From an uncultured Methanosarcinales archaeon (GTDB taxonomy: Archaea > Nanobdellota > Nanobdellia > Woesearchaeales > DSVV01): a DNA stretch of 64,000 bases. Numbering within the stretch: position 1 is the stretch's first letter; each line of letters starts with the position of its first letter. The notes below the pieces were generated by a model that made no database searches, was not told the origin of the DNA, and was given only the letters and a program-made list of their open reading frames with translations. The stretch lies in contig CAYLMH010000001.1 of assembly GCA_964385055.1 (NCBI GenBank), forward strand, positions 30,111 to 94,110, read 5' to 3'. This document shows, piece after piece, positions 1 to 36,811 of the stretch. The translations under genes were made by a program, and so were the position numbers.

Positions 1-1
1 G

Positions 2-1654
2 ATAGCAGAAGCGCTGCATAAACAAGGGAAAAAGATTGTCACCACAAATGGAAGTTTTGATATGATCCATTATGGTCATGTATATTGTCTAGAAAAAGCA
101 AAAGAACAAGGGGATGTTTTGATTGTTGGCCTCAATAGCGATAAGTCAATTAAACAATACAAAAGCCCAGAACGCCCAATTGTTCCTGAAAAATATCGTG
201 CATTGATGCTTGCATCATTAGAATGTGTTGATTACGTTACTGTATTTGATGAAACAGTACCTATGCCTTTTATAGAGGGAATAAAACCACATATTCATGC
301 AAATAGCGGAGAATACAGTGCAGATTGCATTGAACGTCCAACTGTTGAGAAATATGGGGGAAAGATGTATGTTATCGATAAAATAGATGGCTTATCGACG
401 TCCGCACTCTACAAAAAAATAATTGAGCTAGAAACAAAAGAAAACAAAGGAAAATCGAAAAGAGATCTTGTTCTAGAGACAATAAAGAAACAAAATGGAA
501 TTCTATTTGCAGAACCGGCAATTGTCTATCGATGCCAATATAGCGGAAGAAATATTATTGCAAAGAATAGTAAATTTGCTCCAGAATACGTAGATGATCG
601 AGGGTATGTTCCTGTAGAATGGTGGATTATGTCCAAAACAGCAGCAGGAAACGAAAAGAAAAAAGAAGGAGAAGGTCTTTCTCTTGTCTACATTGAAACG
701 GAAAAAGGAACAGAGAAGATAACGTTCCAGCAGGCAGTAGAAATAGCAACTGCAGATGTGCTGGGAAATTATACAAACCAATGGCCATTGACCAAAATTC
801 TTGATATTGGCGGAGAACTAATAGAACCAAGTTTTTCAAAGGAAAAAGAAGTTCCACCTATTCCGTGCCATGTGCATTCAGGGGACATCGTGGATGGAAA
901 AGCTGCAGGACCAGGTAAATTAGAGGCATATTTCTTCCCGCCTGTAAATATCGAACCGTACAACGCGCAATTTGGAAAAACAATAACAAGACTTGGAGTA
1001 AAATCAAATGTCACAAAAGAAATGTTTGAAGAAAAACTCAAGCATTTTGGAAAGGATGATGCGATGTATGACCTCTGCAATGTGTATGAAATCAACGCAT
1101 ATGATGGATGGACATTATTGCCAGGAGTAGTGCATGCACCTGGTCCATGGACAACGTTTGAAATTCAACGCCCGCAGGATGATTTTAATCTTGCAAGTTG
1201 GCAGCTCGGCCAACGATTCAGAGAAGAAGAGTTGGAAGAAAAAAGACAATCATTACAGTTCCGTGGACTAAAAGATGAAAAAGCATTTGTGGAAGAAGTC
1301 GTCAACTGGGAAGTTTCTGTTGATCAAAAATTTAAAGAAAAGTGGTATAGGCCAAGCAAAGTAGTGGAACAAGGAGAGTGGGGAAGACGACTTCAGATTT
1401 TCTTTGATGCGTTTTATGGAGAAGCATTTGAAATAGAACCAGGAAAATCATGGACAAGAACTGCTGATGAACGACCATTTGCGGGGATTGTATGGAGCGG
1501 AAAAGGAATACTCAACGGAAATGAAATAGACGTTATGAATAATGCAAAGAAAGAGTTTTTAGTGACGCCAAAAACAGCAGTGATGATTAAAAATACAGGA
1601 ACGATTCCTCTGTTAATATATACAGTCTTTCCTATTGATGAAAAAAAGATGTGA
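2..1654 (+). CDS. 5'-truncated HldE domain-II-like nucleotidyltransferase (D-beta-D-heptose-1-P adenylyltransferase-like) fused to a ~400-aa uncharacterized C-terminal domain, possibly a cupin/PMI-like isomerase
   Basis: Frame 2 is open from base 2, so the gene starts upstream of the window. The N-terminus (KIVTTNGSFDMIHYGHVYCLEKAKEQGDVLIVGLNSDKSIK..RP.) aligns closely by eye to E. coli HldE domain II ([41 protein letters not shown]..RP). The C-terminal region (IPCHVHSGD, PGVVHAPGPW) has no clear family; the PMI/cupin assignment is weak. Confidence 0.7.
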   Translation: MAEALHKQGKKIVTTNGSFDMIHYGHVYCLEKAKEQGDVLIVGLNSDKSIKQYKSPERPIVPEKYRALMLASLECVDYVTVFDETVPMPFIEGIKPHIHANSGEYSADCIERPTVEKYGGKMYVIDKIDGLSTSALYKKIIELETKENKGKSKRDLVLETIKKQNGILFAEPAIVYRCQYSGRNIIAKNSKFAPEYVDDRGYVPVEWWIMSKTAAGNEKKKEGEGLSLVYIETEKGTEKITFQQAVEIATADVLGNYTNQWPLTKILDIGGELIEPSFSKEKEVPPIPCHVHSGDIVDGKAAGPGKLEAYFFPPVNIEPYNAQFGKTITRLGVKSNVTKEMFEEKLKHFGKDDAMYDLCNVYEINAYDGWTLLPGVVHAPGPWTTFEIQRPQDDFNLASWQLGQRFREEELEEKRQSLQFRGLKDEKAFVEEVVNWEVSVDQKFKEKWYRPSKVVEQGEWGRRLQIFFDAFYGEAFEIEPGKSWTRTADERPFAGIVWSGKGILNGNEIDVMNNAKKEFLVTPKTAVMIKNTGTIPLLIYTVFPIDEKKM

Positions 1655-1665
1655 TGGAGTAAAAA

Positions 1666-2721
1666 ATGGGAGAAATCAATGCAACAGCATTACGACAAGC
1701 ATTTATTGACACTGCGCTTGCAGCAGATGATGCGTTAGCGCAAACAATTCCCGCAATCGCGCAAGGAATTAGTTACCGCCCACAAGTCTCACAAGCAGTT
1801 GCAGAAGTGCTAGGACCAATGGAACTAGAAACCGCTGCAGATGTAAATTCTCTTCTTGTTTCAATTGCATTGCTTGACCATCGTCTTCACGAACAAGGAA
1901 TAAGATACAACCTTGTAGGTGAAGAAAAGAAAAACAGAGACACAGCACAAAAATTAGCAGAAAGACTTCGTGCGTATGATCCTTCTGGCAATGCACCATT
2001 CGATCTTGTTATTGATCCGCTTGACAGTACGAATAATGGTCTTCACGGATTTCCACATGGATACATGCTTTCGCTATTGGAGGCACAAACAGGAACAAGC
2101 CCAGCAATTCCAAGAGCAGGTCTTGAAGAACGATTAGTAAAACCAATAATGGCGCTTGTTTCCAGCAGAACAGAAGGAGAATTATTTGTTGGAGATGGAA
2201 TAAATAACAGAGCGTATAAGATTTTATTAAATCGCGAAGGGGGAAGATGGTCATATCATGCAGCATGTCCAGAAGCTCCCCTTATTGTGGGAAGACAAAC
2301 AGAAATCGACGGCATTTCTATCAATTTTGATGATCGTGGGCATTATCATGGAACACGCCTTGCAGCATTGCAAGAACGATTTGTGCAAGGAAAACTCCTT
2401 GTTAGAATATTTGGAGCATCAGGATATCAACTTCCAAAGCTGGCAGATGCGCACAATGCAAGAGGACTAGGCGCAGCTGTTGAAGTACTAACAAAACCAC
2501 ATGACGTTATTCCTCCAGGAGTTATTCTGACAATTGCAGGAGGATATGTCAAACGCTGGGGACCAGAAGTTGCAGACTGGGCAGAAGAACAAAGAGCATT
2601 CTTCAGATATAATCCTACACGTGGATTTGAATATCACACCAGCTATGCAAACATGAATGGTGGCCTTATTGCGGGAAATAGAACAATTGTTGACAAGCTT
2701 GCAGCAGTTTTAGAGAAATAA
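1666..2721 (+). CDS. IMPase/FBPase-fold sugar phosphatase (inositol monophosphatase family-like)
   Basis: It has a DPLDSTNN motif (IMPase DP(I/L)DGT) and an upstream GEEK acidic motif (IMPase metal-binding EE). Its position between heptose-pathway genes suggests a sugar-phosphate phosphatase role. Confidence 0.45.
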   Translation: MGEINATALRQAFIDTALAADDALAQTIPAIAQGISYRPQVSQAVAEVLGPMELETAADVNSLLVSIALLDHRLHEQGIRYNLVGEEKKNRDTAQKLAERLRAYDPSGNAPFDLVIDPLDSTNNGLHGFPHGYMLSLLEAQTGTSPAIPRAGLEERLVKPIMALVSSRTEGELFVGDGINNRAYKILLNREGGRWSYHAACPEAPLIVGRQTEIDGISINFDDRGHYHGTRLAALQERFVQGKLLVRIFGASGYQLPKLADAHNARGLGAAVEVLTKPHDVIPPGVILTIAGGYVKRWGPEVADWAEEQRAFFRYNPTRGFEYHTSYANMNGGLIAGNRTIVDKLAAVLEK

Positions 2722-2760
2722 GTTTGATGTATTCTTTTATTTTTTTGTTTTATTTTTTCT
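2722..2760. terminator. T-rich tract between convergent genes (candidate archaeal oligo-T terminator)
   Basis: tttatttttttgttttattttttc lies between the stop at 2721 (+) and the stop at 2750 (-). Confidence 0.35.
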
Positions 2761-3664
2761 TCCCCACACCTAACCATTCCATGTAATCCTTAATCCCAGC
2801 TTCCATGGTCCATTGCGGTTCATAGCCAAGCAATTGCTTTGCAAGCATCAAATCAGCCTGCGTATGTGCTTGAAAGAAATCGTATGGACAATCGAAATAT
2901 TCTGGAGGGAGATTAGTTCCTAACACATCGTTCAGAATTTCAATAATTCGGTTAAAAGAAGTGGCATTCCCTGTCGCTGCGTTCAAAATACAACTATACG
3001 GAGCTTTCATCGCGAGTTGATTCATATAGACAATGTCTTTCACATAGACATGATCTCTGCATTGATCGCCAGGAGTAAACACGCGCGGTCGTTTGCCTGC
3101 GAGCATCTGTTGAGACAACTGATAAATCATGCTGGAAAATTTATCTTTGTGCGCTTCACGAGGACCAAAAACGTTGAAATAGCGTAACCCTACAATTCGA
3201 ATCACACCATTATATTTTTTCATATATTCTTGCGCAACATGATCCATCATTACTTTAGAAAAACCATAGACATTCAGAGGTTCTAAGCTTCCATTTTCAC
3301 GATAGGGAGAAGGAGTGTTACCGTACACTGCAGCAGAGCTTGCGTAAATAATGTGCGCTTTTGTGCGAACAGCATAATCAAGAAGTCGACGAAATGCATC
3401 AACGTTGGTTTTCATCATCAGTTCTTGATCTAAAACACGAGTGTCAGAAATTGCTGCCTGATGAAAAATGTAATCAAATGTTCCAAGACTATCCCAAGCA
3501 AAGTCAAGAATACTGCCTGTATAAAATTGTCCGCGAAATCCAATCAAATTAGAAAATTGAGCGTTCTGAAAGTTATCAAGAGCAACAACATCGTGTTCTT
3601 TATCGAATGCGAGCGCAATGTTGCTTCCAATAAATCCTGCAGCGCCAGTGACTAAGATTCTCAT
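2750..3664 (-). CDS. NAD-dependent epimerase/dehydratase, ADP-L-glycero-D-manno-heptose 6-epimerase (HldD)-like
   Basis: MRILVTGAAGFIGSNIALAF Rossmann N-terminus, a YASSAAVYG motif and an HldD-like overall layout. The start was placed at the internal M24 (ATG at 3664) because the ORF N-extension is hydrophobic junk. Confidence 0.75.
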   Translation of the reverse strand: MRILVTGAAGFIGSNIALAFDKEHDVVALDNFQNAQFSNLIGFRGQFYTGSILDFAWDSLGTFDYIFHQAAISDTRVLDQELMMKTNVDAFRRLLDYAVRTKAHIIYASSAAVYGNTPSPYRENGSLEPLNVYGFSKVMMDHVAQEYMKKYNGVIRIVGLRYFNVFGPREAHKDKFSSMIYQLSQQMLAGKRPRVFTPGDQCRDHVYVKDIVYMNQLAMKAPYSCILNAATGNATSFNRIIEILNDVLGTNLPPEYFDCPYDFFQAHTQADLMLAKQLLGYEPQWTMEAGIKDYMEWLGVGKKK

Positions 3665-3770
3665 GAGAGAAAAGAAAAGAAATGGGCTTTTAAAGCTTGT
3701 GAAAAGGGAAGGGAAAAAGAGCTGGAGTTCCACAAGTTTTATAACACAAACAGCGATTTCTAGAGAGAGA

Positions 3771-4883
3771 ATGAGTCTCTATCAACAACTGAGAATGTGT
3801 GCAAAAAAAGGAATAGATAGTGCCTGTTTTCTCCTTCTTCTTCCATCATATTTACGACCAAAAAAAGAAATACAAAAAGAAAAGATACAAAAAATTCTCC
3901 TCATCAACCTGCAAGGAATTGGTGATGTCATAGAAACAACCCCACTCCTGACAGAACTAAGAAACACCTTCCCAAAAGCGAAGATTGACTATCTTTGTTA
4001 TAAAGAAAACGGCACGTTGTTAGAAAACGATCCCAGAATAAACAACCTCATCAAAAGGCAAAAACAAGGAGTTATGAACAGGGACTTTTTCCAAACAATA
4101 CATACTATTCAAAAAAACGAATACAATCTTGTTATCAATCTCTTTCCAGCACAACACAGTGCTCTTTTGACAATCCTGAGCAATGCAGAATACAAAATTG
4201 GAAATCTGTACAGCACCGCAAGCACAGCAAATAACCTCCAAATAAAGAAAGCAGCAAAAACATGGGATGGGAGAGAAAACTGCAAAAACATTGCTGAACA
4301 ACTACAAATCCAAATCAAAGACCCCTATCAACCAACGATAGCAATACCCGCAGTAAGAGAAAAAGCAAGACAAAAAGAAACAAAATACATTCTTCTTAAT
4401 CCACACACGCAATGGATCGCGAAACAATGGCCTATGGAAAATTGGCAGGAACTCATCAAATTCCTTCTGAAAGAAAAGAAGCAATACAACATAGCAATTA
4501 TCGGAACAAAAGCAGACAACGAGAGAACAGAGCGCATCATCAGGCAGTTTCAAAAAGAAAAGCGAGTAGAAAATTGGTGCGGAAAATATACCCTCCAAGA
4601 ACTCGCCGCAAAAATAAAAGCTGCAAAACTCATGATCACGACAGATACAGGCCCAATGCATATCGCGCTTGCGACAAAAACAAAAACAATCGGCCTGTTT
4701 GGCTGCACAGATCCAAATATCCTGGTGAAAGGGAATAAACACATCGAGACCATAAGCAGCTATGACAACTGTCCAAAACAACTGCAATTCAATCATAATA
4801 ATGAACCAGAAGATTACAACCAAACACAAATGAAAAGAATAACTGTGGAAGAAGTCATAAATGAAATAAAGCAAGTTATTTAA
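3771..4883 (+). CDS. GT9 family glycosyltransferase (ADP-heptose:acceptor heptosyltransferase-like)
   Basis: KILLINLQGIGDVIETTPLL and LCYKENGTLLENDPRIN resemble the GT9 heptosyltransferase N-terminal motifs (IRLSSLGD.. type). The C-terminal TTDTGPMHIA motif matches GT9 TNDSGPMHLA. The start was chosen at the internal ATG 3771. Confidence 0.75.
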   Translation: MSLYQQLRMCAKKGIDSACFLLLLPSYLRPKKEIQKEKIQKILLINLQGIGDVIETTPLLTELRNTFPKAKIDYLCYKENGTLLENDPRINNLIKRQKQGVMNRDFFQTIHTIQKNEYNLVINLFPAQHSALLTILSNAEYKIGNLYSTASTANNLQIKKAAKTWDGRENCKNIAEQLQIQIKDPYQPTIAIPAVREKARQKETKYILLNPHTQWIAKQWPMENWQELIKFLLKEKKQYNIAIIGTKADNERTERIIRQFQKEKRVENWCGKYTLQELAAKIKAAKLMITTDTGPMHIALATKTKTIGLFGCTDPNILVKGNKHIETISSYDNCPKQLQFNHNNEPEDYNQTQMKRITVEEVINEIKQVI

Positions 4884-4913: not shown

Positions 4914-6908
4914 TCAGACTTCTCTTTTTCTAAACGGAATACTAAATAAAAAGAGCAAGAGAAAGAAGAGAAGATAAATACTATGAAGTTGCTGTGGTTT
5001 GAAGAAGTCAAATGTCTTAGAAGAAGAAGAGCAGGGTTGACCAAGAGAAATTCCATTTCTTAGTTCCAAGACATCAAGAACATTATTACCTACGACTTCA
5101 GAACGAGAACATAACAAATCAATGTTCTGTTTATAATAAGAAATAAAAGAAGGAATAATCTCTTGACAAAGTGAAAGAGGAAGATAAACTTCGACAAAAG
5201 TGTAGGGAGTAGATAAATAATTACCCCATAAGAAAGGAAAATAGCCTAAACATTTAGATTGTGAAAGTGTATTTGTATAAGGTCTTAAGAGAGGGTAAAG
5301 AAATTCATTTTTTGGAGAAAGAATAATTATAGAAGTATTTTCCTGTTGAAAAATGACTTGAGAAAAAGTGGTGGATATTTTGTCGAGATCATACTGCCAA
5401 CGTGCTTCATAGTCTCCAGGAGAACTAATAAGACCCTTAGTAACAAGAACTTGGGCATGGAGTTCATAACCAATAGTGTCATACTCATATAAGCGATAAG
5501 TGTCAACGTTAAGAAAGTCACTCTTATTAAGATGGAGAAAAAGAGGATATGAAGAATACGCAGTATAATCATGACCAACTAAGACAGAGTCAACTTGGGG
5601 AAGGGAATAAAAGGGATAAGAAACTTCTTTCCTAACTTTATCAAGCATCTTTTGGGTATTAAAAAGAGAACCATCAGAAAAGTCTGAAAAAGTAAAGCCT
5701 GAAAAAAAAGGATAAGAAAGAAATAGAAGAAAAGTAAGAATAAGAAAGTAAGAAGTTTTTATAGCTTTAGAGTATAAGGGAAATTCCACTTTAATTTTAT
5801 ATAATAAAATGATATAAAAAGGAAAAAAGAGAAAGAAATATCGCTCTAAAACCACATGTTGCAATCCAAAAGCTATTGCTGCTTTTCCATAAAACAAAGG
5901 AAAAGAGATTCCACAAATAAATGAGTAAACATCGAACGCACCTGAGAAAAGACGAATAATAACAATAAGTAAAGCAAGATACAACAATAAATAAAATGCA
6001 TTAGGATGACTAAAGAGAAAAAAAGAATATAATACCTCAAAGAGTGAAGCAGAAGGAGGAAAATCTGCGAAAATACCATAATAATATGTAAGAAAGTTTG
6101 GATATTTTATAATAACTAGACTGTATAACAAAAAGAGAGGGAGAGAAAGATAAAAGAGGTTTCTAAACGATTCTAGAAAAGATTGCTTTTGTTCTAATTT
6201 ATAACGAAGAAACATAAACAAAAAAGCAGGTCCAACAAGGAAGAGAGTACTTGATTTGGAAAGCAGAGAAAAGGCAAATAAGAAAGATCCAAGAAATTTA
6301 AGATAAGTGCTGTCTGTATAGTAAAAGAGCAAGAAACCTGGGATAAGAAAGAAAAGAGCAACAGTTGTTGCAAAATCAAATTCTTTTAAAGTAACAAAAA
6401 GGAAGAGGAAGAGTAGGAAAAAGAAAGAGGTATCTTTTGTATATGCATATTTTATCTTGTAAAGAAAGAAAGCAACAATAGAAAGTGAAAGAAGAGAGAA
6501 TAATAAAAGTCCTAATGCAAAATTATCATCAGAAAAAACAAAACGAATAAGATAAGCTACTACATAAGTAATCGGTCCCTGAACACAATATGGATTTTCA
6601 GTGTATAATGTCCCTTGTTGCAAATAAGCCAGGCAAAATTCTTGACCAAAAAGTCGTGGGGGGGAATAGGGTTCTAACCAACCTAAAGTTAATAATCCAC
6701 TCAAAATAAGCATAAAAGAAAGAATAGACCAAAAGAAATTACAGGGACTAATTTTTAAATAGTCACGTATGAAAAAGAGAGAAAGAAGAGTAGCAAGGAA
6801 CAGAAGAATAGAAGAGAGAAATGACAATCCTAAGAAACTAAAGACTGGAATACTCAAAAATAAAAAGAATAAAGGGAATAAATAAGAGTAATAAGTAGAC
6901 ATGGGCAA
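4914..6908 (-). CDS. Large polytopic membrane protein, family A paralog (GT-C-like candidate) with a C-terminal soluble domain
   Basis: About 12 predicted TM segments. The conserved motif is RLFGQEFCLAYLQQGTLYTENPYCVQGPITYVVAYL. The C-terminal domain is clearly homologous to that of 47889-49889 (SDGSLFNTQKMLDKVRKEVSYP vs SDGSIFNGQKFLDKVRMEISFP; CSRSEVVGNNV vs CHRSKVVGGII). Confidence 0.6.
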   Translation of the reverse strand: MPMSTYYSYLFPLFFLFLSIPVFSFLGLSFLSSILLFLATLLSLFFIRDYLKISPCNFFWSILSFMLILSGLLTLGWLEPYSPPRLFGQEFCLAYLQQGTLYTENPYCVQGPITYVVAYLIRFVFSDDNFALGLLLFSLLSLSIVAFFLYKIKYAYTKDTSFFFLLFLFLFVTLKEFDFATTVALFFLIPGFLLFYYTDSTYLKFLGSFLFAFSLLSKSSTLFLVGPAFLFMFLRYKLEQKQSFLESFRNLFYLSLPLFLLYSLVIIKYPNFLTYYYGIFADFPPSASLFEVLYSFFLFSHPNAFYLLLYLALLIVIIRLFSGAFDVYSFICGISFPLFYGKAAIAFGLQHVVLERYFFLFFPFYIILLYKIKVEFPLYSKAIKTSYFLILTFLLFLSYPFFSGFTFSDFSDGSLFNTQKMLDKVRKEVSYPFYSLPQVDSVLVGHDYTAYSSYPLFLHLNKSDFLNVDTYRLYEYDTIGYELHAQVLVTKGLISSPGDYEARWQYDLDKISTTFSQVIFQQENTSIIILSPKNEFLYPLLRPYTNTLSQSKCLGYFPFLWGNYLSTPYTFVEVYLPLSLCQEIIPSFISYYKQNIDLLCSRSEVVGNNVLDVLELRNGISLGQPCSSSSKTFDFFKPQQLHSIYLLFFLLLFLFSIPFRKREV

Positions 6909-7002
6909 AAGGAGTAGAAGATAATTTAAATAGTTTAACCTTCGCGACAGACTTCTATGAGGAAGGAGAAATAATCGTAGGCAAAGTCCTAGTAAGAAAG
7001 GA

Positions 7003-7018
7003 ATAAACTTTATAATAA
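7003..7018 (+). promoter_or_regulatory. Archaeal BRE/TATA box (tttataat) ~23-30 nt upstream of the ATG at 7039 (leaderless-type promoter)
   Basis: aaactttataataaaa sits at the canonical distance from the start codon. Confidence 0.45.
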
Positions 7019-7038
7019 AAACACTCCATCTAAGAAAT

Positions 7039-7758
7039 ATGACTGGAAAAGAAGAGAAAGATCATAAGATAAGCGTCATTATTCCTGTGTTTAATGAAGA
7101 AAACTGTATTTTAGAAATATATAATAAAGTAAAAGAAGCAAATATAGGAAACATAAAAAAAGAAATAATTATTGTTGATGATTGTTCTACAGACAAAACA
7201 GCAGAGAGAATAAAAGAAATAAAAGATAAAGAAGTGAAAATACTGTTCCATGAAAAGAATTATGGAAAAGGAAGAGCAATAAGAACAGGATTAAAAGAAG
7301 TCACCGGAGACATCATTATAATACAGGATGCAGACTTGGAATATGACCCAAACGATTTTCAAATACTTATAAAACCAATCCTTGAAGGAAAAGCTGAAGT
7401 GGTTTATGGATCAAGAAGACTAAACAAGGAAAATGAACAATACGCTGGACTCTCGTACTATGTTGGAGGAATAGGGCTGACCAAAATAACAAACATGTTG
7501 TACAATAGCCACCTCACCGATGAAGCAACAGGATATAAAGTATTCAAAACAGAGCTTCTTCAGAGTCTTAACCTTGAATGTGAAAGATTTGAATTTTGCC
7601 CAGAAGTAACTGCAAAAGTGCTGAGAAGAAAGAAGAACATAGTAGAAGTTCCAATTAACTATTATCCGAGAAGCATAAAGGAAGGAAAGAAGATTCGCTT
7701 TAAAGATGGCTTTGAAGCAGTCTGGACGCTACTTAAATGGCGTTGGAAAAAGTTCTAA
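7039..7758 (+). CDS. GT2 glycosyltransferase (dolichyl-phosphate sugar synthase, DPM1/AglJ-like)
   Basis: ISVIIPVFNEE..IIIVDDCSTDKT..IIQDADLEYDP are GT2 signatures (DxD region), with a DPM1-like architecture. Confidence 0.85.
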   Translation: MTGKEEKDHKISVIIPVFNEENCILEIYNKVKEANIGNIKKEIIIVDDCSTDKTAERIKEIKDKEVKILFHEKNYGKGRAIRTGLKEVTGDIIIIQDADLEYDPNDFQILIKPILEGKAEVVYGSRRLNKENEQYAGLSYYVGGIGLTKITNMLYNSHLTDEATGYKVFKTELLQSLNLECERFEFCPEVTAKVLRRKKNIVEVPINYYPRSIKEGKKIRFKDGFEAVWTLLKWRWKKF

Positions 7759-7760
7759 AA

Positions 7761-8339
7761 TTATTTTACTGCAATAGTTACATACGTTGTTGGTCCATTT
7801 CTATCCTTATAATTCCCAACAAAATAAAAGAGTTTGTTAAACAATTTAAGAAAAGGAAGTTTCCAAGTAATCATTTCCCAGAAAAAGAAAAACCTGTTTC
7901 CCACTTCTTTTACATCAACATGGGAAAATTCTTTACACAATTCTTTCAAACCATCTCGAGTATATCGAAAATAATCATTGGGGTCAGGATGATAAGGGTA
8001 AAGAAAAGGAGTAGAAATAATGACTGTTCCTCCTTTTTTGAGGACACGATGAATTTCTTTGAGTACCTGAGTGGGATTATGACAATGTTCGAGAAGTTCT
8101 GTTGCAACAACAGTGTCAAAAGTTCCTTTTTTGATCATAAAAAGATTGTGTGCGTCAGCAACAATATCAGGATTGTTTTCTTTATTGATGTCAACACACA
8201 AATACTCCGTGTATTGCATTTCTTTTTTATAGGGACTTTTTTTGCCGCCAAGATCAAGAACTTTTCCAAGCTTTCTTTCTCCGAGAAGAGAAGCAAGTTC
8301 CTTATCTAAAGCAATTCGTATGAGTTCTTTCATGTTCAA
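7761..8339 (-). CDS. Class I SAM-dependent methyltransferase (Methyltransf_11-like)
   Basis: VLDLGGKKSPY glycine-rich SAM motif, ..HNLFMIKKGTFDTVVATELLEH, VLKKGGTVIIS. Confidence 0.75.
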   Translation of the reverse strand: MNMKELIRIALDKELASLLGERKLGKVLDLGGKKSPYKKEMQYTEYLCVDINKENNPDIVADAHNLFMIKKGTFDTVVATELLEHCHNPTQVLKEIHRVLKKGGTVIISTPFLYPYHPDPNDYFRYTRDGLKELCKEFSHVDVKEVGNRFFFFWEMITWKLPFLKLFNKLFYFVGNYKDRNGPTTYVTIAVK

Positions 8340-8344
8340 AAAAT

Positions 8345-9814
8345 TTATGTACTTTTCGTCATCTGCATTTTAAGCATCATGCGTTGGGCTGAAAGTTTAA
8401 GAAGATCTTTTCCAGCAACAATGTTTCGTTTAAGATCCGCAAAGTTTCTCATTTCTTTGAGTTTTCGGACAATAAATCGGGGCCGTGTGTATAACTCAAA
8501 GTATGCTCGTCCATTCCAATAGGCGATCTCCTCTGCAGTAAGATACTTTGTCCGCACCATAGGCGTTGTCCCATGAGAAATGTGTTTTTCCCAATTCGTT
8601 GCGTCTTCCCCAACAAAAAGATTATTGTCTGCAACTTCCTTAAAGATTGGTGTTTCGAAATAAGGATTGAGAGTGTTAAAGTACGTAATATCAGCGTCAA
8701 TTTTTTTAGCGAATGCGATTGTTTGCTTAATTTCTTTTTCACTTTCCCACGGAAAGCCAATAAGGAAAGAACATTTTACTTGTATACCTACTTTTTTCGT
8801 GAGAACAACTGCGCGCTCAACCTGCTCAAGAGTAATAAATTTTTTGAGGCGATCAATACCTTCTTGATAACCACATTCAACACCAAAAATAATACTTCTA
8901 CAGCCACCTTCATACATTTTCTGTAAGATATCTTCTTTGACATTACTAACACGAGTGAGGCATTCCCAAATGACATCAATATTTCTCGCTTTTATCTCAT
9001 CACATATATCAATAACTCTTTTGTGATTAACAGTGAACTCGTCATCCTGAAAATACATGTGAGAAATACCAAAGGTTTTATTGAGGTACTCAATTTCATC
9101 AACAACAACCTTAGGGCTTCGCTGTCGCCATTTATACTGGTTCATTTGAACACTGGTGCAAAAGCCACATTGCGCAGTACAGCCACGAGAAGTAATCATC
9201 GTGGAAAATTTACGCCCGACATCTAATGCAGCATATGCCTTGTATTTATCCATAGGAAGAAGATGATATGCAGGCATGGGAAGCTCATCAAGATTTTTAA
9301 TAAGTTCCCGGGCTGGAGTTCGAACAGGCTTCTTGTTTTCATCAAGATAACAAATACCTTGTATTTTTCTATAATCCCCTTGTTTTTTTAAAATGTAATG
9401 AACAAGATCACGTGCTGTATATTCTGCTTCACCCATAATAACAAAATCAACACCTTCACGAACAACCGCTGTTTCTGGAAGAATTGTCGCGTGTGGACCA
9501 CCATAAAAGATAGTGACTTCTGGAAGCGCTTTTTTAAAATCTTTAATGAGATCCATCGTTAAAGGAAAGTTTGCAGTAACCCCCGCAGCAGCAATTATTT
9601 TTGGCTGTAATTCAGTTACTTTCTGAACAATCTCCGCATGATTCATGCCAAGAGTAAACGCATCAAGAATCTGAACAGTGTACCCTGCCTGCTCGAGAAC
9701 CGCGGCAATAGAAGCTACACCAAGAGGCGGACTTCTCGAGCTCAAGCTGTCAAGAATACCATAACTAAATGGAGGAGCAACAAAAAGAACGTCTAATTGC
9801 TTTTCTTGAGTCAT
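8345..9814 (-). CDS. Cobalamin-binding (class B) radical SAM protein
   Basis: The N-terminal B12-binding-like domain (DVLFVAPPFSYG..) is followed by SRGCTAQCGFCTS (a CxxxCxxC radical SAM cluster motif). Confidence 0.85.
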   Translation of the reverse strand: MTQEKQLDVLFVAPPFSYGILDSLSSRSPPLGVASIAAVLEQAGYTVQILDAFTLGMNHAEIVQKVTELQPKIIAAAGVTANFPLTMDLIKDFKKALPEVTIFYGGPHATILPETAVVREGVDFVIMGEAEYTARDLVHYILKKQGDYRKIQGICYLDENKKPVRTPARELIKNLDELPMPAYHLLPMDKYKAYAALDVGRKFSTMITSRGCTAQCGFCTSVQMNQYKWRQRSPKVVVDEIEYLNKTFGISHMYFQDDEFTVNHKRVIDICDEIKARNIDVIWECLTRVSNVKEDILQKMYEGGCRSIIFGVECGYQEGIDRLKKFITLEQVERAVVLTKKVGIQVKCSFLIGFPWESEKEIKQTIAFAKKIDADITYFNTLNPYFETPIFKEVADNNLFVGEDATNWEKHISHGTTPMVRTKYLTAEEIAYWNGRAYFELYTRPRFIVRKLKEMRNFADLKRNIVAGKDLLKLSAQRMMLKMQMTKST

Positions 9815-9901
9815 AGAACAAAAAGAAGAAGTTCAGTCAATTTAAACTTTACTATGGTTCTTTGCATAAGCTTTAAATATCGCACTAAACTATCGAAATA
9901 T

Positions 9902-11299
9902 ATGCTCGATGTGTTGTTAATTAATCCACCATATACAAAAAAAGGAGGAAATATTTGGAAAACCGTGGCAAGCTGTATGCCTCCTCGTTCTCTTGCAATT
10001 CTTGCAGCATGCTTTGAAAGAGATGGTAAGACAGTAAAAATTCTTGATACACATGCAGAACGACTTGCAGTGGATGACATGGAAGAATTTTTGCGCACGA
10101 ATTATGATAATCCTCGATTTATTGGTTTAACAGGGACAACAGTAACTATTCATCATGCATATGCTGTTGCACAATTATGCAAAAAACTCTGGCCAGAAAC
10201 AAAAATTGTTTTTGGGGGCTATCATGCATCATCAAAACCAGCAGAATGCATTCAGCAGCCATTCGTTGATTTTGTTGTTCGGGGAGATGGAGAAGAAGCG
10301 TTTTTGGAAATAGTCAATGGAGAGGATCCAACAAAGATAAAGAATCTCACATACCTCGATAAAAATAAGAAAGTAATTCATAATCCAGAAAGGGAAATGC
10401 CAAAGGATCTTGACATTTACCCTATTCCTTCGTATCATCTTCTTCCTCTGGACAAATATTTTCCTGCTGTTGGAGTGTACAAACGCCTTCCCGCAATTAG
10501 TGTAGTCACATCCAGAGGTTGCCCTGGAAAATGCACGTTTTGTTATCAGCCATATGGAACAAACCTACGATGGCATTCTGCAGAAAGAGTGTTTGAAGAG
10601 GTAAAACTATTGGTAACAAAATACGGATACAGAGAAATTTGTTTTTATGATGATAATTTTGCAACAAACAAAGCAAGAACAAGAAAGATCTGTGAACTTT
10701 TCCTTGGATCTGGATTAGATATTGTCTGGAGTTGTTTCTCACGAGTAGATTGGGCGGACGCAGAACTTCTCAAACTTATGAAAAAAGCAGGGTGCCATCA
10801 AGTCATGTTCGGCGCAGAGAGTGGCGATCAAGCAATGCTAGATGGAATGCGAAAACAAGTAACACTAGATAGAATCCGACAAGCAGTGAAGTGGACAAAG
10901 GATGCTGGTTTAGATTGTCGTGCAGCATTCCTCTTTGGAATGCCTGGCGAAACAGAAGAAACAATGAAGAAGACAATAGATTTTGCGCTTGAACTTGATC
11001 CAGATATTGCGCAATTTAATATTGCAACACCAAACCCAGGAACACAACTATACGACTGGGCAGAACAAAATGGGTATCTTGGAACGCAGCAATGGGAAGA
11101 CTATGACTGGGCTTCTCCTGTTTTAGTATTACCAACAGTTGATGCTGAACTCGTTAAAAAATATTACAAGCTTGCATATCGAAAGTTCTATATGCGACCG
11201 AGATACATAATAAAACGACTTGGAAAGCTTCGTTCTGTGGAAGATTTCAAAAATGCTGCACGAGCAATGCGAAGTGTTATTGATGTGACGTCACACTAA
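9902..11299 (+). CDS. Cobalamin-binding (class B) radical SAM protein (paralog)
   Basis: MLDVLLINPPY N-terminus and SRGCPGKCTFCYQ CxxxCxxC motif. The start was moved to the internal ATG at 9902, because the ORF N-extension overlaps the divergent gene. Confidence 0.85.
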   Translation: MLDVLLINPPYTKKGGNIWKTVASCMPPRSLAILAACFERDGKTVKILDTHAERLAVDDMEEFLRTNYDNPRFIGLTGTTVTIHHAYAVAQLCKKLWPETKIVFGGYHASSKPAECIQQPFVDFVVRGDGEEAFLEIVNGEDPTKIKNLTYLDKNKKVIHNPEREMPKDLDIYPIPSYHLLPLDKYFPAVGVYKRLPAISVVTSRGCPGKCTFCYQPYGTNLRWHSAERVFEEVKLLVTKYGYREICFYDDNFATNKARTRKICELFLGSGLDIVWSCFSRVDWADAELLKLMKKAGCHQVMFGAESGDQAMLDGMRKQVTLDRIRQAVKWTKDAGLDCRAAFLFGMPGETEETMKKTIDFALELDPDIAQFNIATPNPGTQLYDWAEQNGYLGTQQWEDYDWASPVLVLPTVDAELVKKYYKLAYRKFYMRPRYIIKRLGKLRSVEDFKNAARAMRSVIDVTSH

Positions 11300-16202: not shown

Positions 16203-16904
16203 TCAGAGCCTCCATCTCAATCTGAGGACATACGGCAGCATCTTCAATTCTCGCCGAAAATTAAAACTGCTCTGTTTGCCAAAGTTCCATGCGACAGAAA
16301 ACTCATCTATTGTATAACCCAATTTCTGCGCGCGAACAAGTAATTCCACATCCCAGAACCAGCCGCGAACAAACGTCTCATCATACCCCATCGCATAAAG
16401 AAGAACAAGCAATTTCTCTTTGCGAAATGCCTTAAATCCGCATTGATGATCCGCAAGAGTAGAACCAAAATACACGCGCATAAACCAGTTATAGACAACG
16501 CTGATAATCTTGCGACCAAACTCCCGTTTTGCGCGAACTCCCTTATACCTGCTGCCAATCGCAATGTCGTTTCCTTGTTCAATGCTAGAAATAAGACGAG
16601 GTAATGCAGCAAGATCAGCAGAAAGATCAAGATCCATGAACGCAATAATGTCTCCTTTTGCGCTATAAAATGCCTTACCCAAATTCTCTCGCCTACTTGG
16701 TCCATTAGAAAAGTACAAATGTTTTATTTCTTTATGTTTCTCTATGAGTTTTTTTGCAATTACGGCAGTTGCGTCTGTGCTTCCATCATCCACAATAACA
16801 AGTTCAAACGGTTTTTTCAACAAAAGAAGCGCGTGATAAATGAGCAGAATATTTTTCTCAAGGCGTTGTTCTTCGTTGTAGCAGGGAATAAAAACAGAGA
16901 GCAT
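16203..16904 (-). CDS. GT2 glycosyltransferase
   Basis: MLSVFIPCYNEEQRLEKNI..LVIVDDGSTD..DLDLS are GT2 signatures. Confidence 0.85.
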   Translation of the reverse strand: MLSVFIPCYNEEQRLEKNILLIYHALLLLKKPFELVIVDDGSTDATAVIAKKLIEKHKEIKHLYFSNGPSRRENLGKAFYSAKGDIIAFMDLDLSADLAALPRLISSIEQGNDIAIGSRYKGVRAKREFGRKIISVVYNWFMRVYFGSTLADHQCGFKAFRKEKLLVLLYAMGYDETFVRGWFWDVELLVRAQKLGYTIDEFSVAWNFGKQSSFNFRRELKMLPYVLRLRWRL

Positions 16905-18685
16905 TATGAAGTCCCCCCATCAAGTGCGTAAAATTCAACAATACCTGCGCTGTTCGTATACGTCGTTGCGAGATAAGGAGTTTTATTAACTAAGAATGCA
17001 TCAACATCAAAAACACCGCCTTTTTCCAAAACAAAGTAATATGGAGCAAGCTGATCTCCTTCAGGGATGAGACCAATTTGTTGAATCTCATAATTCTGCT
17101 GAATATATTCCCAGACATCTGGTTTAGACTGCACTGTTCCAATACCTGGTCCATACAAAACAACCCAGCGGAATTGAAGTGTATTCTCCATTTCCTGAAC
17201 CCATGTAAGATTCGAAGAAATTTCATCTAAGCCATAGCGATGCGCGTGCCAGAGAAGACCACTGGATTGAGCAAAAACACCGTCAATAAAGACACGATCT
17301 TCAGGATCGCTATTTCTATAAATATAATCTCCTGCAACATCTTGACCATAGTAAATGACATCAAAAACTCGTCCAGTTGCTTCAGTAAGATCTGCAAAAG
17401 AGAGGAAAAGTAGCACTGCAAACAAAACAAAAACAACCTTTCCACGAACAAGTTTTTCATGAAAGGAATATTTTTTTGTGTATGATTCTAAAATATGTGC
17501 GAGAACAAAAAGAGCATACGCGCTTCCAAGGCAAACAAACGGAAGAAAAACCATTTGGTAATATGCGTGACCACGGAATTTATCCGCAAAAAAGAGGATA
17601 TAAAGAAGCAAGGAGAAAAAACTTCCAATAAGAAATAAACCCGTGGTTGTTTTATGTTTTAAAAGACCAAAGACAACAGCAAGAACAGTAAGCCAGAAGA
17701 ACCATACAGTAAAATTGTCAAGAACAAAAGAACGAATGCCTGAATAATGCTCGTTCCAGTAAGAGAAAGTAAATGTTCGTATAATATTGTCACGAACTTC
17801 AGCAAAACTTTCACTGAATCCGCCAGTTCCCACTGTTGTGGCTCCAGGCATTGTCCATTGAGAAAATTTCACCCAGATTGGAAAAATAGCCATAAGCAAA
17901 AAGAAGAGCAATGCAAGCATGCAAAGATATTTTTTTCGCAGAAGAAGATTTTTGTAAGGAACTAAAAAAAGGAGAGGAACTAAGCCGATCCCGTTAGGAA
18001 TTTTAAGAAGGATCGCGATAAGAAAACTCAGAGAAAAATAAAAGAATTTTGTATAATAATACACAGAAGCAAGCACATCATCACGCCAGCATAAAAACCA
18101 GTATGTGCCAAGAAGAATAAAGAAAACAGCGGGCGCTTCTGGCTGGACGTTTCTTCCAAAGAAAACACTAATAGGCATAATAGTGAAAAAAAAACACGCG
18201 ATGAGTGCCAAAGAATGATTATCTGTAAGTTTTTTGCCAACAAGGTAAAGCAGCGGAATACATGCAAGAGAGAAAAGAATGATGACAAACCGTGCTGCCC
18301 AGAGTTTTACGCCAAAAACCCACCATAATGGTAAAATGATCCAAGAAAGCAAAGGAAACTCATACTGCGTAAAATACCCTCGTTGTTGACTTCCAGCAAG
18401 ATACGTCTCAGTCCTAAAATAATCAAGAACTTCATCTGCGTTATACATAAATTCAGTGTAAGGAATATACTGCGCCTCTTTCATATTATGGTATCCGATA
18501 ACAGGAAAATCCATGTGGTAGGAACGAAGATAAAAACCAAAGAGCATGAAAGCGAGTAAAAGAACAACATGTGGTTTCGCTTTGCAAAAAGTAAGAATTT
18601 TAGAGAGATCAAAGGTGATTTCTTGTGCTTTTGAGTTGCTTTCTACTTGACTCTGCTGCGCTTCTACCATAAAGGAAGAGGGCAC
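16904..18685 (-). CDS. GT-C glycosyltransferase, ArnT/PMT (GT39/GT83)-like polytopic membrane protein
   Basis: ACIPLLYLVGKKLTDNHSLALIACFFFTIMPISVFFGRNVQPEAPAVFFILLGTYWF matches the PMT_2/ArnT conserved loop-TM region (..PLLYLIGKRLFG..ALSP..V.YSR....E.P...F..L..Y.F). An N-terminal acidic DEVLDYF loop is also present. Confidence 0.6.
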   Translation of the reverse strand: MPSSFMVEAQQSQVESNSKAQEITFDLSKILTFCKAKPHVVLLLAFMLFGFYLRSYHMDFPVIGYHNMKEAQYIPYTEFMYNADEVLDYFRTETYLAGSQQRGYFTQYEFPLLSWIILPLWWVFGVKLWAARFVIILFSLACIPLLYLVGKKLTDNHSLALIACFFFTIMPISVFFGRNVQPEAPAVFFILLGTYWFLCWRDDVLASVYYYTKFFYFSLSFLIAILLKIPNGIGLVPLLFLVPYKNLLLRKKYLCMLALLFFLLMAIFPIWVKFSQWTMPGATTVGTGGFSESFAEVRDNIIRTFTFSYWNEHYSGIRSFVLDNFTVWFFWLTVLAVVFGLLKHKTTTGLFLIGSFFSLLLYILFFADKFRGHAYYQMVFLPFVCLGSAYALFVLAHILESYTKKYSFHEKLVRGKVVFVLFAVLLFLSFADLTEATGRVFDVIYYGQDVAGDYIYRNSDPEDRVFIDGVFAQSSGLLWHAHRYGLDEISSNLTWVQEMENTLQFRWVVLYGPGIGTVQSKPDVWEYIQQNYEIQQIGLIPEGDQLAPYYFVLEKGGVFDVDAFLVNKTPYLATTYTNSAGIVEFYALDGGTS

Positions 18686-18703: not shown

Positions 18704-20527
18704 TTATGGATGAAACGAAGAGTTTCCGAAGAAGTCCAAACTAAAAGAAGAGATATCCTGACAGGCAGGAAAATTCATTCCATTCTCTTGAAGCACAACG
18801 CGAGCAGTTTCTGCTTGCTCCCAACTCAAGAGACAGAGTTCATCATAATGAGTAAAATAATAGAGAGAAAGTTCTTCCTTGAAAGCTGCGCACTGATCAG
18901 GATCACTGAAAAAGATATACAAAACAGGTTTGTCCCTGTTTTCCAAGAAGGGAACAGCAACAGAGCAGTGAGAGATACCAGATGCTTGAGAGAAGTTGAA
19001 AAGATCATAGAGATTAGAATAGGGGAAAGAATTGTCAGATGCATCAAAGGGGAAAAAACGAACAAGAGCAACATCATATTGTTTTGTGTTAATAACATCA
19101 TAAAAAAGAGCAGCATGTTCAGGTAAGGGAACATAATGATATTTAAAATACGAATCTAAAAGAAGAGGGTTTGCAAAGTCATTGGTTACAACAGTGATTT
19201 CATAATCAGAGAGAGAATCTTTGTAAAATGTTGTCGACACGTTAAGACCAATAGTATAAACTATCCGTGGGCTAGAAGTAGTATCCCATTCCAAAAAGAT
19301 AGGATTAAGAAGATAAAATATCTTATCATCAAGAGAAAAATAGGGAAAGTCATGCTGTAAGCTCAGACTATTAGGTTTTCGTTCTAGAAGAAACACGCCA
19401 TCCACAGAAGAAAGATAATCAGCACCTGCACGAAGAGTAATTCGCGATGAAGCAACAGAAAGTTGATCTTGGTAAAAGTGAAGAAGGAAAGGCGTTATGA
19501 AAAGAAGACCAATAAAGAGCAGAGCAACTCGATGTTTTCGTGGCAGAGAAAAATAATAAAGAAAGATGCATATCAGGAACAAAAAGTAAAAGGGAAGAAA
19601 ATAAACTGCGAGAGATAGTTCCTCTCTACCTGTTTGGCGTAAAAAGACAAGAACAAGAATAAGAAAAGGAAAAGAGAGAAGAAAAGAAAAGAGATTTCTG
19701 GATTTATAAAAGAAAAAGAAACCAAAAGCGATCATGAAGACAAGCATGAAAAAGAAGAGGTTATGATGAGAAAAAATGTTAAATCCTGAAAAAAAAGTAA
19801 ACAATGCTTGAGAAGTTGTTCCTTTAGGATAGATCGTATGAGCAAGAGAAACATAAACAAAGAATTTTGGAAATAAGATGTAGAGAAAAGCAACAGAAGA
19901 GAAAGAAACAAGAAAAATAGTTTTTACATTCGAAACAAGCTGCTCTCTGTTCATAAAAAGATAATAAAATAAGAGAAACACTGCAGGAACAAGGAGAAGA
20001 TATTTAGTAAAAACCGCGAGAAAAAGAAGGAAAGAAGAGAGAGCAATTTTATACCTATGCGAGGTATAAACTAGAAGATAAAGTGCAAGGAAAAAAAAGA
20101 AACACGCAAGAGTAATATCAAAAACAGGTAAGAAAGGATAGTAAATAAAAAACATATAGACAAAAAGCAAACGAAAGAAAGTCTTTACATCCGTTTCTCT
20201 AAAAATAAATGTACGTATCAAAAAGAATAAAGCGGTGTGAAGAAAAACTGCGAAGAGCGTAAGACCTGAATAAAGAGAATTACCCAGAAAAGAGTAAAAA
20301 ACATACACGATATAGAAAAGAACTGGCCCTTGTTCGCAATAAGGCTGTCCTTCATAAAGAGTTCCTTGAGAAATGTAATCCATACAAACAAACCAACGAT
20401 CGCGAAATAACTCTCCTTGAAGATTTGGAAAATGAAGTGCTGCAAGAATAAAGAAAACAAGAAAACAGAAAGAAAAGAGAAAGAAAGGACGTTTCTGAAA
20501 TAAGAGAAGGGTTTCCCGTAATTGCAT
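18704..20527 (-). CDS. Large polytopic membrane protein, family A paralog (GT-C-like candidate)
   Basis: Motif FVCMDYISQGTLYEGQPYCEQGPVLFYIVYV, at least 10 TM segments and a ~250-aa C-terminal soluble domain. Confidence 0.6.
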   Translation of the reverse strand: MQLRETLLLFQKRPFFLFSFCFLVFFILAALHFPNLQGELFRDRWFVCMDYISQGTLYEGQPYCEQGPVLFYIVYVFYSFLGNSLYSGLTLFAVFLHTALFFLIRTFIFRETDVKTFFRLLFVYMFFIYYPFLPVFDITLACFFFFLALYLLVYTSHRYKIALSSFLLFLAVFTKYLLLVPAVFLLFYYLFMNREQLVSNVKTIFLVSFSSVAFLYILFPKFFVYVSLAHTIYPKGTTSQALFTFFSGFNIFSHHNLFFFMLVFMIAFGFFFFYKSRNLFSFLLSFPFLILVLVFLRQTGREELSLAVYFLPFYFLFLICIFLYYFSLPRKHRVALLFIGLLFITPFLLHFYQDQLSVASSRITLRAGADYLSSVDGVFLLERKPNSLSLQHDFPYFSLDDKIFYLLNPIFLEWDTTSSPRIVYTIGLNVSTTFYKDSLSDYEITVVTNDFANPLLLDSYFKYHYVPLPEHAALFYDVINTKQYDVALVRFFPFDASDNSFPYSNLYDLFNFSQASGISHCSVAVPFLENRDKPVLYIFFSDPDQCAAFKEELSLYYFTHYDELCLLSWEQAETARVVLQENGMNFPACQDISSFSLDFFGNSSFHP

Positions 20528-29660: not shown

Positions 29661-29665
29661 AGAAG

Positions 29666-36810: not shown

Positions 36811-36811
36811 G

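Follow-up and report, generated by a model that had tools for sequence, protein, structure and literature searches.

Nucleoside diphosphate heptoses (NDP-heptoses) serve as units for the assembly of surface glycans and are potent innate-immune agonists sensed by ALPK1; which organisms can make them is surveyed by homology to GmhA, HldE and GmhB. As far as the commentary PMC11461863 relates the study of Tang et al. (Science 2024), functional NDP-heptose enzymes occur in archaea, viruses and eukaryotes, in subgroups consisting of the nucleotidyltransferase only, of kinase and nucleotidyltransferase, or of isomerase, kinase and nucleotidyltransferase, and the phosphatase is absent from viruses and eukaryotes. 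That survey, as described there, crossed nucleotidyltransferase homologues with three other known enzyme types, so that a non-homologous isomerase would presumably have escaped detection. The kinase and nucleotidyltransferase families described in that account (HldE, or HldA plus HldC) are the same as those of the present locus, which occupies positions 2–4883 of a 64-kb stretch of contig CAYLMH010000001.1 ("the window" means this whole stretch of 64,000 nt). Its first gene, g1, joins a nucleotidyltransferase to a C-terminal domain without annotation, here called X. On balance we favour the reading that g1 is a bifunctional sedoheptulose-7-phosphate (S7P) isomerase and heptose-1-phosphate nucleotidyltransferase, in which X is a non-homologous substitute for GmhA.

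Four genes were found at positions 2–4883 by open reading frame (ORF) listing and translation, with the following features:

2–1654, plus strand: g1, open at the window edge, with a nucleotidyltransferase domain and domain X
2–439, plus strand: N-terminal domain of g1, a heptose-1-phosphate nucleotidyltransferase of the HldE-domain-II type (HldC-like)
440–1654, plus strand: C-terminal domain X of g1 (404 aa), a bicupin without annotation, with the class I phosphomannose isomerase (PMI) fold
869–1135, plus strand: putative metal/catalytic residues of X, namely H144 (869–871), H146 (875–877), K160 (917–919), E162 (923–925) and H232 (1133–1135)
1666–2721, plus strand: g2 (351 aa), a divergent protein of the fructose-bisphosphatase/inositol monophosphatase (FBPase/IMPase) superfamily, putative phosphatase
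2750–3664, minus strand: g3, HldD, ADP-glycero-manno-heptose 6-epimerase
3771–4883, plus strand: g4, GT9-family glycosyltransferase, heptosyltransferase-like

The start of g3 is the ATG at 3664, in agreement with a 304-aa gene call in locus L002. For g4 the start is probably the ATG at 3771 rather than at 3618, which gives 370 aa compared to 371 aa for the homologue in locus L001 and removes the apparent overlap with g3. The host is archaeal, since the nearest X homologues in a scan of GTDB species genomes were from Woesearchaeota metagenome-assembled genomes (MAGs; 67–70% identity) and an A-type ATP synthase B subunit (62634–63845) lies at the closing end of the window. The best explanation for positions 2–4883 is that they are the 3′ part of a Woesearchaeota-like archaeal operon for nucleotide-activated heptose, and the entire 64 kb is a glycan-biosynthesis island. 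The first-pass annotation, made from the letters of the sequence, had described an ADP-heptose-like module in an archaeon; the domain identities uphold an NDP-heptose module, while archaeal heptose synthesis as such has already been published.

Residues 1–140 of g1 matched TIGR02199 (rfaE_dom_II) with 152 bits (E 9e-45) over profile positions 3–142 of 144, which is below the equivalog cut-off of 181.5 bits, two profile positions being lost at the cut end; homologues from Candidate Phyla Radiation (CPR) bacteria scored 184 and 168 bits. PF01467 was matched with E 5e-16, and the HxGH motif is present as 'HYGH' (nt 68–79), with GLSTS at nt 389. Against the NCBIfam models for glycerol-3-phosphate cytidylyltransferase and phosphopantetheine adenylyltransferase the domain scored 35 and 33 bits, respectively. 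A TagD-like cytidylyltransferase was thus ruled out, and the domain sides with HldE domain II, on the very comparison that the first-pass annotation had named as decisive for this proposal. The segment 'MYVIDKIDGLSTS' of g1 contains no Arg, its register relative to the STTR5 nucleotide-specificity motif being uncertain.

The window edge cuts 18 codons off the 5′ end of g1, as seen from the full-length homologue P0001 (98% identical, 568 aa), which has 18 extra N-terminal residues. Because P0001 exceeds g1 by these residues only, a kinase domain fused upstream of g1 was ruled out. P0001 is encoded on a 257-kb JGI contig (L001) that is 94.4% identical on DNA level to window positions 1–3704, and the gene order there is a GT9+Epimerase_2 fusion, an ARMT1-like gene (305 aa), a full HldE (PfkB kinase plus nucleotidyltransferase, 499 aa), g1, g2, HldD and GT9. 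HldE stops 4 nt ahead of g1 and is itself preceded by the ARMT1-like gene. An exact look-up of the g2 protein of the window gave no contig on record, and the upstream context is therefore that of L001. The upstream kinase for which the first-pass annotation had advised a search was found in this near-identical contig, as a separate gene rather than as a part of g1. The first gene in this order (L001 5025–7556), upstream of the heptose genes, encodes an 843-aa fusion of a GT9 heptosyltransferase-like protein with a WecB-like UDP-GlcNAc 2-epimerase.

Domain X covers residues ~147–550 of g1 and includes the strings IPCHVHSGD and VVHAPGPW, from which a weak likeness to PMIs or cupins had been suggested at first. 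None of 60 members of the X family matched anything in Pfam at E≤1, and no NCBIfam match was obtained, TIGR00218 and Pfam PMI_typeI being among the PMI models that missed it. An AlphaFold (AF2) model built from 60 homologues reached a predicted local distance difference test score (pLDDT) of 96.7 and a predicted template modelling score (pTM) of 0.93, and the top 17 Foldseek matches of this model in the PDB were all PMIs (E 3e-16 to 5e-10). The best match was the putative PMI AF0035 of A. fulgidus (1zx5; E 3e-16, target TM-score 0.75), and Salmonella ManA (E 1e-12), B. subtilis 1qwr (E 2e-11) and Candida 1pmi (E 3e-10) were also among them; generic bicupins followed at TM ~0.35. Identity in the structural alignments to PMIs was ~10–17%. 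The PMI/cupin likeness suggested for the C-terminal extension was thereby supported by structure prediction, and also by the sequence profiles described below.

On sequence level, matches of X to PMIs among PDB sequences were marginal both with the single sequence (E 0.009) and with profile A1 of the X family (E 0.0014), and comparison of the A1 profile to E. coli ManA was not significant in hhalign or in hmmsearch --max. When the profile was broadened by a divergent sister subfamily with 23–28% identity (profile A5), hmmsearch against PDB sequences gave 1zx5 with E 6e-7 and the B. subtilis PMI 1qwr with E 3e-4, so that it was the addition of this subfamily that made the sequence link to PMIs significant. 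In the A5 alignment, 'LTKILD', 'HVH', 'GKLEAYF' and 'HAPG..T.EIQ..QDD' of X fell on 'LTKLLD', 'KVH', 'GKTECWY' and 'HALC....ETQQNSD' of the PMI. The sister subfamily (P0207, P0214, P0216, P0219, P0226, P0232, P0249, P0251, P0263) consists of proteins of ~400 aa that keep the H/K/E/H site, are without the 'WPLTK..GG..PPIP' insert, and bridge X and the classical PMIs.

H144, H146, K160, E162 and H232 were invariant in 60 X homologues, and H146, K160, E162 and H232 were also invariant in the sister subfamily down to 23% identity, H144 being nearly so. HMMER placed H146, K160, E162 and H232 on 'KVH', 'GKTE' and 'LHA' of 1qwr, and H146, E162 and H232 on the corresponding motifs of 1zx5. Compared to class I PMIs (ManA/Pmi; 1qwr, 3h1m, 1pmi, 1zx5), X shares the bicupin fold with helical insert, the metal ligands and the collinear motifs (L)TK(I)LD, xVH, GKxE and HAxG...E(I)Q..(S/Q)D, and the first ligand is His (HxH) in X as opposed to Gln (QxH) in E. 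coli and Salmonella ManA. From alignments and model together, we place X in the class I PMI superfamily as a distinct branch whose metal/catalytic site is predicted to be intact, which favours a function as aldose-ketose isomerase with a manno-configured substrate.

An exhaustive search with hidden Markov models (HMMs) gave 648 matches to the X family among 1.84 billion representative sequences. Stand-alone X proteins of ~400 aa, 46–61% identical to X of the window, were found in archaea, in bacteria of the CPR and of other groups, and among eukaryotes, EukProt transcriptomes included. The eukaryotic proteins (P0109, P0113, P0064, P0047 in L032/L033, P0101 in L030, and L031) showed 46–53% identity to the archaeal domain, were likewise stand-alone proteins of ~400 aa without annotated function, and came from the sponges Halichondria panicea and Sycon ciliatum, from the amoeba Pelomyxa (in an intron-containing gene), and from an animal-like contig with Ig-domain genes. 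Between archaea and animals X members are thus ~50% identical. X relatives were not found on viral contigs. Fusions of X with the nucleotidyltransferase were found as PfkB kinase+nucleotidyltransferase+X (L003, L005) and as ARMT1+nucleotidyltransferase+X (four Methanosarcinales-type loci); ARMT1+X without nucleotidyltransferase was also found, and L004 contained X+nucleotidyltransferase, which is taken as an independent fusion because the domain order is reversed. Fusions to kinases were X+PfkB, PfkB+X and a P-loop kinase of the PRK/uridine-kinase type+X, in addition to AAA_18+X (P0144, P0175, P0130, P0163, P0164); X has thus been joined repeatedly to sugar kinases of unrelated folds.

GTDB species genomes were scanned with the X profile, and reference domains were mapped on all ORFs of the loci obtained. 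In 15 mapped loci (14 from the genome scan, and L001) X was fused to, or a few genes away from, an HldE-type kinase. The same held for three more metagenome loci with an rfaE_dom_I-type kinase or HldE, giving a prokaryotic total of 18, and these loci variously contained a second rfaE_dom_II nucleotidyltransferase, a DUF89/ARMT1 or HAD phosphatase, GT9 and HldD. Among NCBIfam models the kinases scored best against rfaE_dom_I and the nucleotidyltransferases against rfaE_dom_II. The neighbours of X in L027 and L030–L033 (eukaryotic and some archaeal loci) were uninformative. The CPR operons (L020–L022) consist of X, nucleotidyltransferase, transaldolase, PfkB kinase and a Cof-type HAD phosphatase, with GT9 nearby; their transaldolase scored 351 bits against TIGR02134 (cut-off 282), and their nucleotidyltransferase, at 184 bits, was above its cut-off. 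Transaldolase makes S7P. The isomerase, kinase, phosphatase and nucleotidyltransferase steps can be matched one-to-one to the genes of these operons, which leaves X as the sole candidate isomerase.

This context bears on what kind of isomerase X could be. Given that fold and metal site are those of PMIs and that fusions of nucleotidyltransferase and PMI are known from GDP-mannose synthesis, X might be an ordinary PMI interconverting fructose-6-phosphate and mannose-6-phosphate, in a module for a mannose-type nucleotide sugar or for mannose metabolism. This is very improbable, as X forms a separate tight family (the 648 representatives) that no Pfam or NCBIfam PMI model matches, its partners are HldE-type kinases and nucleotidyltransferases, HldD and GT9 and not ManB or ManC, the CPR operons include an S7P-supplying transaldolase, and X takes the position of GmhA. 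X thus differs from the class I PMIs in partnering heptose enzymes rather than mannose enzymes, and its gene neighbourhoods favour a C7 substrate. The closest architectural parallel to g1 is provided by the type II PMI/GDP-mannose pyrophosphorylases (AlgA/XanB/ManC type), bifunctional enzymes that likewise combine a nucleotidyltransferase with a cupin isomerase and are a precedent for fusing the first and last steps of such a pathway. They consist of an NTP_transferase domain (PF00483) and a small cupin, whereas g1 consists of a PF01467 domain of the cytidylyltransferase-like (HxGH) fold and a 404-aa class-I-like bicupin, with heptose as the predicted sugar, so the likeness is one of architecture only.

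X is most often fused straight to the nucleotidyltransferase, and in both orders, and many cupins are epimerases or ketoisomerases of NDP-sugars. From this X could be read as acting at a later step, with the nucleotide sugar or heptose-1-phosphate as substrate of a tailoring epimerase or cupin, or else as a non-catalytic sugar-binding regulatory domain, and the duplicated nucleotidyltransferase of the archaeal loci might make sense if the isomerase were encoded elsewhere. We consider such a role highly improbable: the PMI-type His/Lys/Glu/His site is invariant, the cupin epimerases of NDP-sugars are single small cupins, X is also found fused to kinases alone and as a stand-alone protein in eukaryotes, and the CPR operons would lack an isomerase despite their dedicated transaldolase.

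Even with a threshold of E≤10, neither the 64-kb window nor the X-associated loci (447 kb) contained homologues of GmhA or GmhB; the E. coli GmhA, GmhB and ManA queries were validated against NCBIfam, all scoring well above the cut-offs. X itself showed no sequence similarity to GmhA and no homology to the SIS domain or TIGR00441. In a control set of 80 metagenomic loci around HldE-type kinases, GmhA was found near 13 and X near 4, and the two were never found together. Among loci of at least 8 kb, GmhA was present in 0 of 15 X-type loci compared to 12 of 36 others (Fisher one-sided p=0.008). Two loci of classical layout, GmhA-HldD-HAD-kinase-nucleotidyltransferase (L042) and GmhA-kinase-nucleotidyltransferase-GT9 (L043), contain kinases 43–44% identical to the HldE of the window lineage; where these have the GmhA layout, X-type loci have ARMT1, kinase+nucleotidyltransferase and nucleotidyltransferase+X. 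Such an arrangement would be expected if X had displaced GmhA, and DUF89/ARMT1 the HAD phosphatase, in a non-orthologous manner.

GmhA (SIS fold, TIGR00441) catalyses the reaction, at the same position of the pathway, that is predicted for X, which stands in the slot that GmhA occupies in L042 and L043. The folds are unrelated, an SIS alpha/beta fold in one case and a metal-dependent bicupin in the other, so that X would be an analogue of GmhA and not a member of its family. A replacement of the missing GmhA-type isomerase by the C-terminal extension had been put forward from the start, and X is now the best candidate, judged by its fold and conserved metal site, by its fusions and operon context, and by the mutual exclusion of X and GmhA. 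With good confidence, though from computation, we regard it as the isomerase that makes the manno-heptose skeleton.

For the phosphatase step, the first-pass annotation had pointed to g2, as an IMPase-fold protein replacing the HAD-type GmhB. Its fold is plausible. The Pfam Inositol_P model was matched with 19.4 bits (E 8e-4) under a gathering cut-off of 27, and g2 shares the motifs GEE (nt 1918), DPLDST (nt 2014) and HD..AGG with all three of its homologues. In Foldseek, all 50 of the 50 matches listed were FBPase, CysQ or SAL1 (E ~1e-4, TM ~0.3), the query being a low-confidence AF2 model built from three sequences (pLDDT 48). No homology to GmhB (TIGR00213, HAD fold) was found, g2 being of a different fold class. 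A role as heptose-1,7-bisphosphate 7-phosphatase in place of GmhB is suggested by the position of g2, which begins 11 nt past g1 on the same strand, and by the retained FBPase/IMPase catalytic motifs, as members of this superfamily hydrolyse sugar bisphosphates. We nevertheless regard this role as unlikely. Only three homologues of g2, all from the same narrow lineage, were found among 5.8 billion proteins, and the gene is absent from every other mapped X-type locus, for which reasons it was also rejected as a conserved member of the module. It is a lineage-restricted orphan, plausibly of the FBPase/IMPase superfamily, and a sedoheptulose-1,7-bisphosphatase supplying S7P, as a counterpart of the CPR transaldolase, is a guess at least as likely as the GmhB role.

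The phosphatase conserved together with X is a different one. In archaea it is a DUF89/ARMT1-like protein, frequently in one fusion with nucleotidyltransferase and X, and in CPR a Cof-type HAD protein. In L001 an ARMT1-like gene (7578–8495, 305 aa) is located two genes upstream of g1, and g2 is therefore not needed as an analogue of GmhB. This 305-aa protein, which scored 161 bits against NF040824 compared to an equivalog cut-off of 440, is a member of the DUF89/ARMT1 damage-control phosphatases (PF01937; NF040824), as are the N-terminal domains of the Methanosarcinales fusions. What sets them apart is that they form part of a biosynthetic pathway, by gene position as well as by fusion, at the place where GmhB (HAD-IIIA) would be expected to act; this speaks for a dedicated role and not for a housekeeping one.

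HldD (g3) scored 302 bits against TIGR02197 (cut-off 274.6) over profile positions 2–313 of 316, and a score above the equivalog cut-off argues for heptose rather than hexose. The GT9 protein (g4) matched PF01075 with E 1.8e-37 (129.5 bits, cut-off 22), and scored 129, 108 and 91 bits against lipopolysaccharide (LPS) heptosyltransferase equivalogs with cut-offs of 170, 185 and 135, respectively, heptosyltransferase III being the best (129). We infer the following substrate, order of steps and acceptor. X would convert S7P into D-glycero-D-manno-heptose-7-phosphate by metal-assisted enediol isomerisation as in PMI, and the HldE kinase encoded just upstream would add the 1-phosphate to give the 1,7-bisphosphate. 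The 7-phosphate would then be stripped, most likely by the upstream DUF89/ARMT1 protein and not by g2, and the nucleotidyltransferase domain of g1, of HldE or of both would convert the resulting heptose-1-phosphate into NDP-heptose. HldD would epimerise C6 to give the L-glycero epimer, and the GT9 protein would move the heptose onto a non-LPS archaeal glycan acceptor. A protein- or lipid-linked glycan is suggested as acceptor by an AglJ-like GT2 and PMT_2-type GT-C proteins in the neighbourhood and by STT3 in related loci.

Several observations weigh against the proposed S7P pathway. In three Firmicutes-like loci, of Limnochordales, Symbiobacterium and a Bacillota MAG (L010 3209–8185; L013 91–6305; L017 588–3441), X was found beside XylB-like FGGY kinases and not beside heptose genes; against the XylB cut-off of 380 bits these kinases scored 515 (L013), 505 (L017) and 278 (L010, which is under it). 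In L010 a ribose-type ABC permease, DUF4432 and a DhnA-type aldolase were also present, and another such locus contained a glycyl-radical enzyme and its activase. These loci look like catabolic sugar clusters with an isomerase-ketokinase layout, and could encode catabolism of heptose or of lyxo/manno-sugars. X keeps essentially the same conserved residues there: a comparison with X from heptose loci for discriminating residues showed no lost basic residue, and only T181 differs consistently, being replaced by S. This indicates that X may accept an unphosphorylated sugar, and these loci suit an isomerase of free sugars no less well.

The mapping of the putative metal site is based on HMM alignment and motif order, and the isomerase assignment as a whole is a computational prediction. 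The HldE and ARMT1-like genes are not within the window, and their presence upstream of g1 in the window's own genome is predicted from synteny with L001. Archaeal X-type loci contain two nucleotidyltransferase domains of the rfaE_dom_II type, one on HldE and one that is X-fused or stand-alone (L001 8497–11707; L003, L005, L006–L009, L012, L035, L036, L055), compared to one in the CPR loci, and the simple four-step scheme gives no account of the second. The absence of GmhA applies to the gene neighbourhoods and the 64-kb window and not to whole genomes, and when loci of all lengths were counted (0 of 18 X-type compared to 13 of 76 others) the p-value was 0.05.

The loci with FGGY kinases bear in particular on whether the substrate of X is phosphorylated. 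X might isomerise free sedoheptulose to D-glycero-D-manno-heptose, or act on lyxo/manno aldoses, so that a DUF89 or HAD phosphatase with S7P as substrate, the isomerase X, an HldE-type 1-kinase and the nucleotidyltransferase would act in this order and no 1,7-bisphosphate would be formed. The same four enzyme classes are needed in both routes and the context evidence fits both equally, so context cannot separate a phosphorylated from a free substrate. The layout of L010, L013 and L017 corresponds to conversion of a free aldose to a ketose followed by a ketokinase, with the same residues in X, and DUF89 enzymes are known as sugar-monophosphate phosphatases, which would fit a free-sugar route. 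On the other hand, all characterised structural relatives of X are phosphosugar isomerases, the kinases score best against models of heptose-7-phosphate kinase, and dephosphorylation of S7P followed by rephosphorylation would cost an extra ATP equivalent with nothing gained. A free substrate is accordingly doubtful, though it deserves consideration beside the favoured S7P isomerase.

Downstream of g4, the genes at 4914–7758 encode glycan-assembly proteins that are likely users of the heptose product:

4914–6908, minus strand: polytopic membrane protein (664 aa) with ~11 hydrophobic segments, with paralogues within the window and without Pfam match
7039–7758, plus strand: AglJ-like GT2 (PF00535 E 8e-36; TIGR04182 AglJ 117 bits, under its cut-off)

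The first of these is one of four paralogous polytopic membrane proteins of 600–670 aa, up to 35% identical and with 9–11 hydrophobic segments, that are scattered in the glycan island. None of the four matched Pfam; NCBIfam scans covered the proteins at 4914–6908 and 47889–49889 and gave no match either. Next to each other in this archaeal island lie two proteins of the 3,6-dideoxyhexose enzyme type, a fusion of an RmlD-like reductase with an RfbH-like dehydrase and a CDP-glucose 4,6-dehydratase-like protein. The B12-binding radical SAM enzymes of the island may be involved in sugar methylation or other modification, and similar genes were found near X-type heptose loci elsewhere (5–6 of 111 neighbours). 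A 5S rRNA gene stands alone in the island; no 16S or 23S rRNA gene and no tRNA gene was found anywhere in the 64 kb. The coordinates of these features are:

18704–20527, minus strand: second paralogous membrane protein
23135–25141, plus strand: third paralogous membrane protein
47889–49889, minus strand: fourth paralogous membrane protein
16904–18685: PMT_2-type GT-C protein
29636–31378: PMT_2-type GT-C protein
8345–9814, minus strand: B12-binding radical SAM enzyme
9797–11299, plus strand: B12-binding radical SAM enzyme
26601–27977, plus strand: B12-binding radical SAM enzyme
34624–36849, minus strand: RmlD-like reductase and RfbH-like dehydrase fusion (741 aa; NF011936 679 bits, above cut-off)
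37924–38931, minus strand: CDP-glucose 4,6-dehydratase-like protein (205 bits, under cut-off)
41496–41612, minus strand: 5S rRNA gene (64.9 bits)

A cupin- or PMI-type S7P isomerase, a DUF89 protein in heptose synthesis, or fusions of the kinds described here were not found in a full-text literature collection that lacks most subscription journals, and the commentary PMC11461863 mentions neither nucleotidyltransferase+X, ARMT1+nucleotidyltransferase+X and kinase+nucleotidyltransferase+X proteins nor a DUF89 phosphatase. The X family and its link to DUF89 thus appear to be unreported in the literature searched, in contrast to archaeal NDP-heptose synthesis, which has been published. At the centre of this version of the pathway stands an enzyme family without annotation, with members in all three domains of life. 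It is a tentative thought that X and DUF89/ARMT1 make up a second NDP-heptose route in DPANN archaea, Methanosarcinales and CPR, with both GmhA and GmhB replaced and possibly proceeding via free heptose without the 1,7-bisphosphate, and that X, highly conserved in sponges, another animal and amoebae, serves as the isomerase for heptose synthesis or for salvage from eaten bacteria in eukaryotes, for which the published survey reported no phosphatase. If X is an S7P isomerase and DUF89 the phosphatase, the pathway would have been wrongly scored as lacking in DPANN archaea and CPR bacteria, and possibly also in many eukaryotes; a compact family without a Pfam model would gain a function, and DUF89/ARMT1 a dedicated role in biosynthesis, the first for this family.

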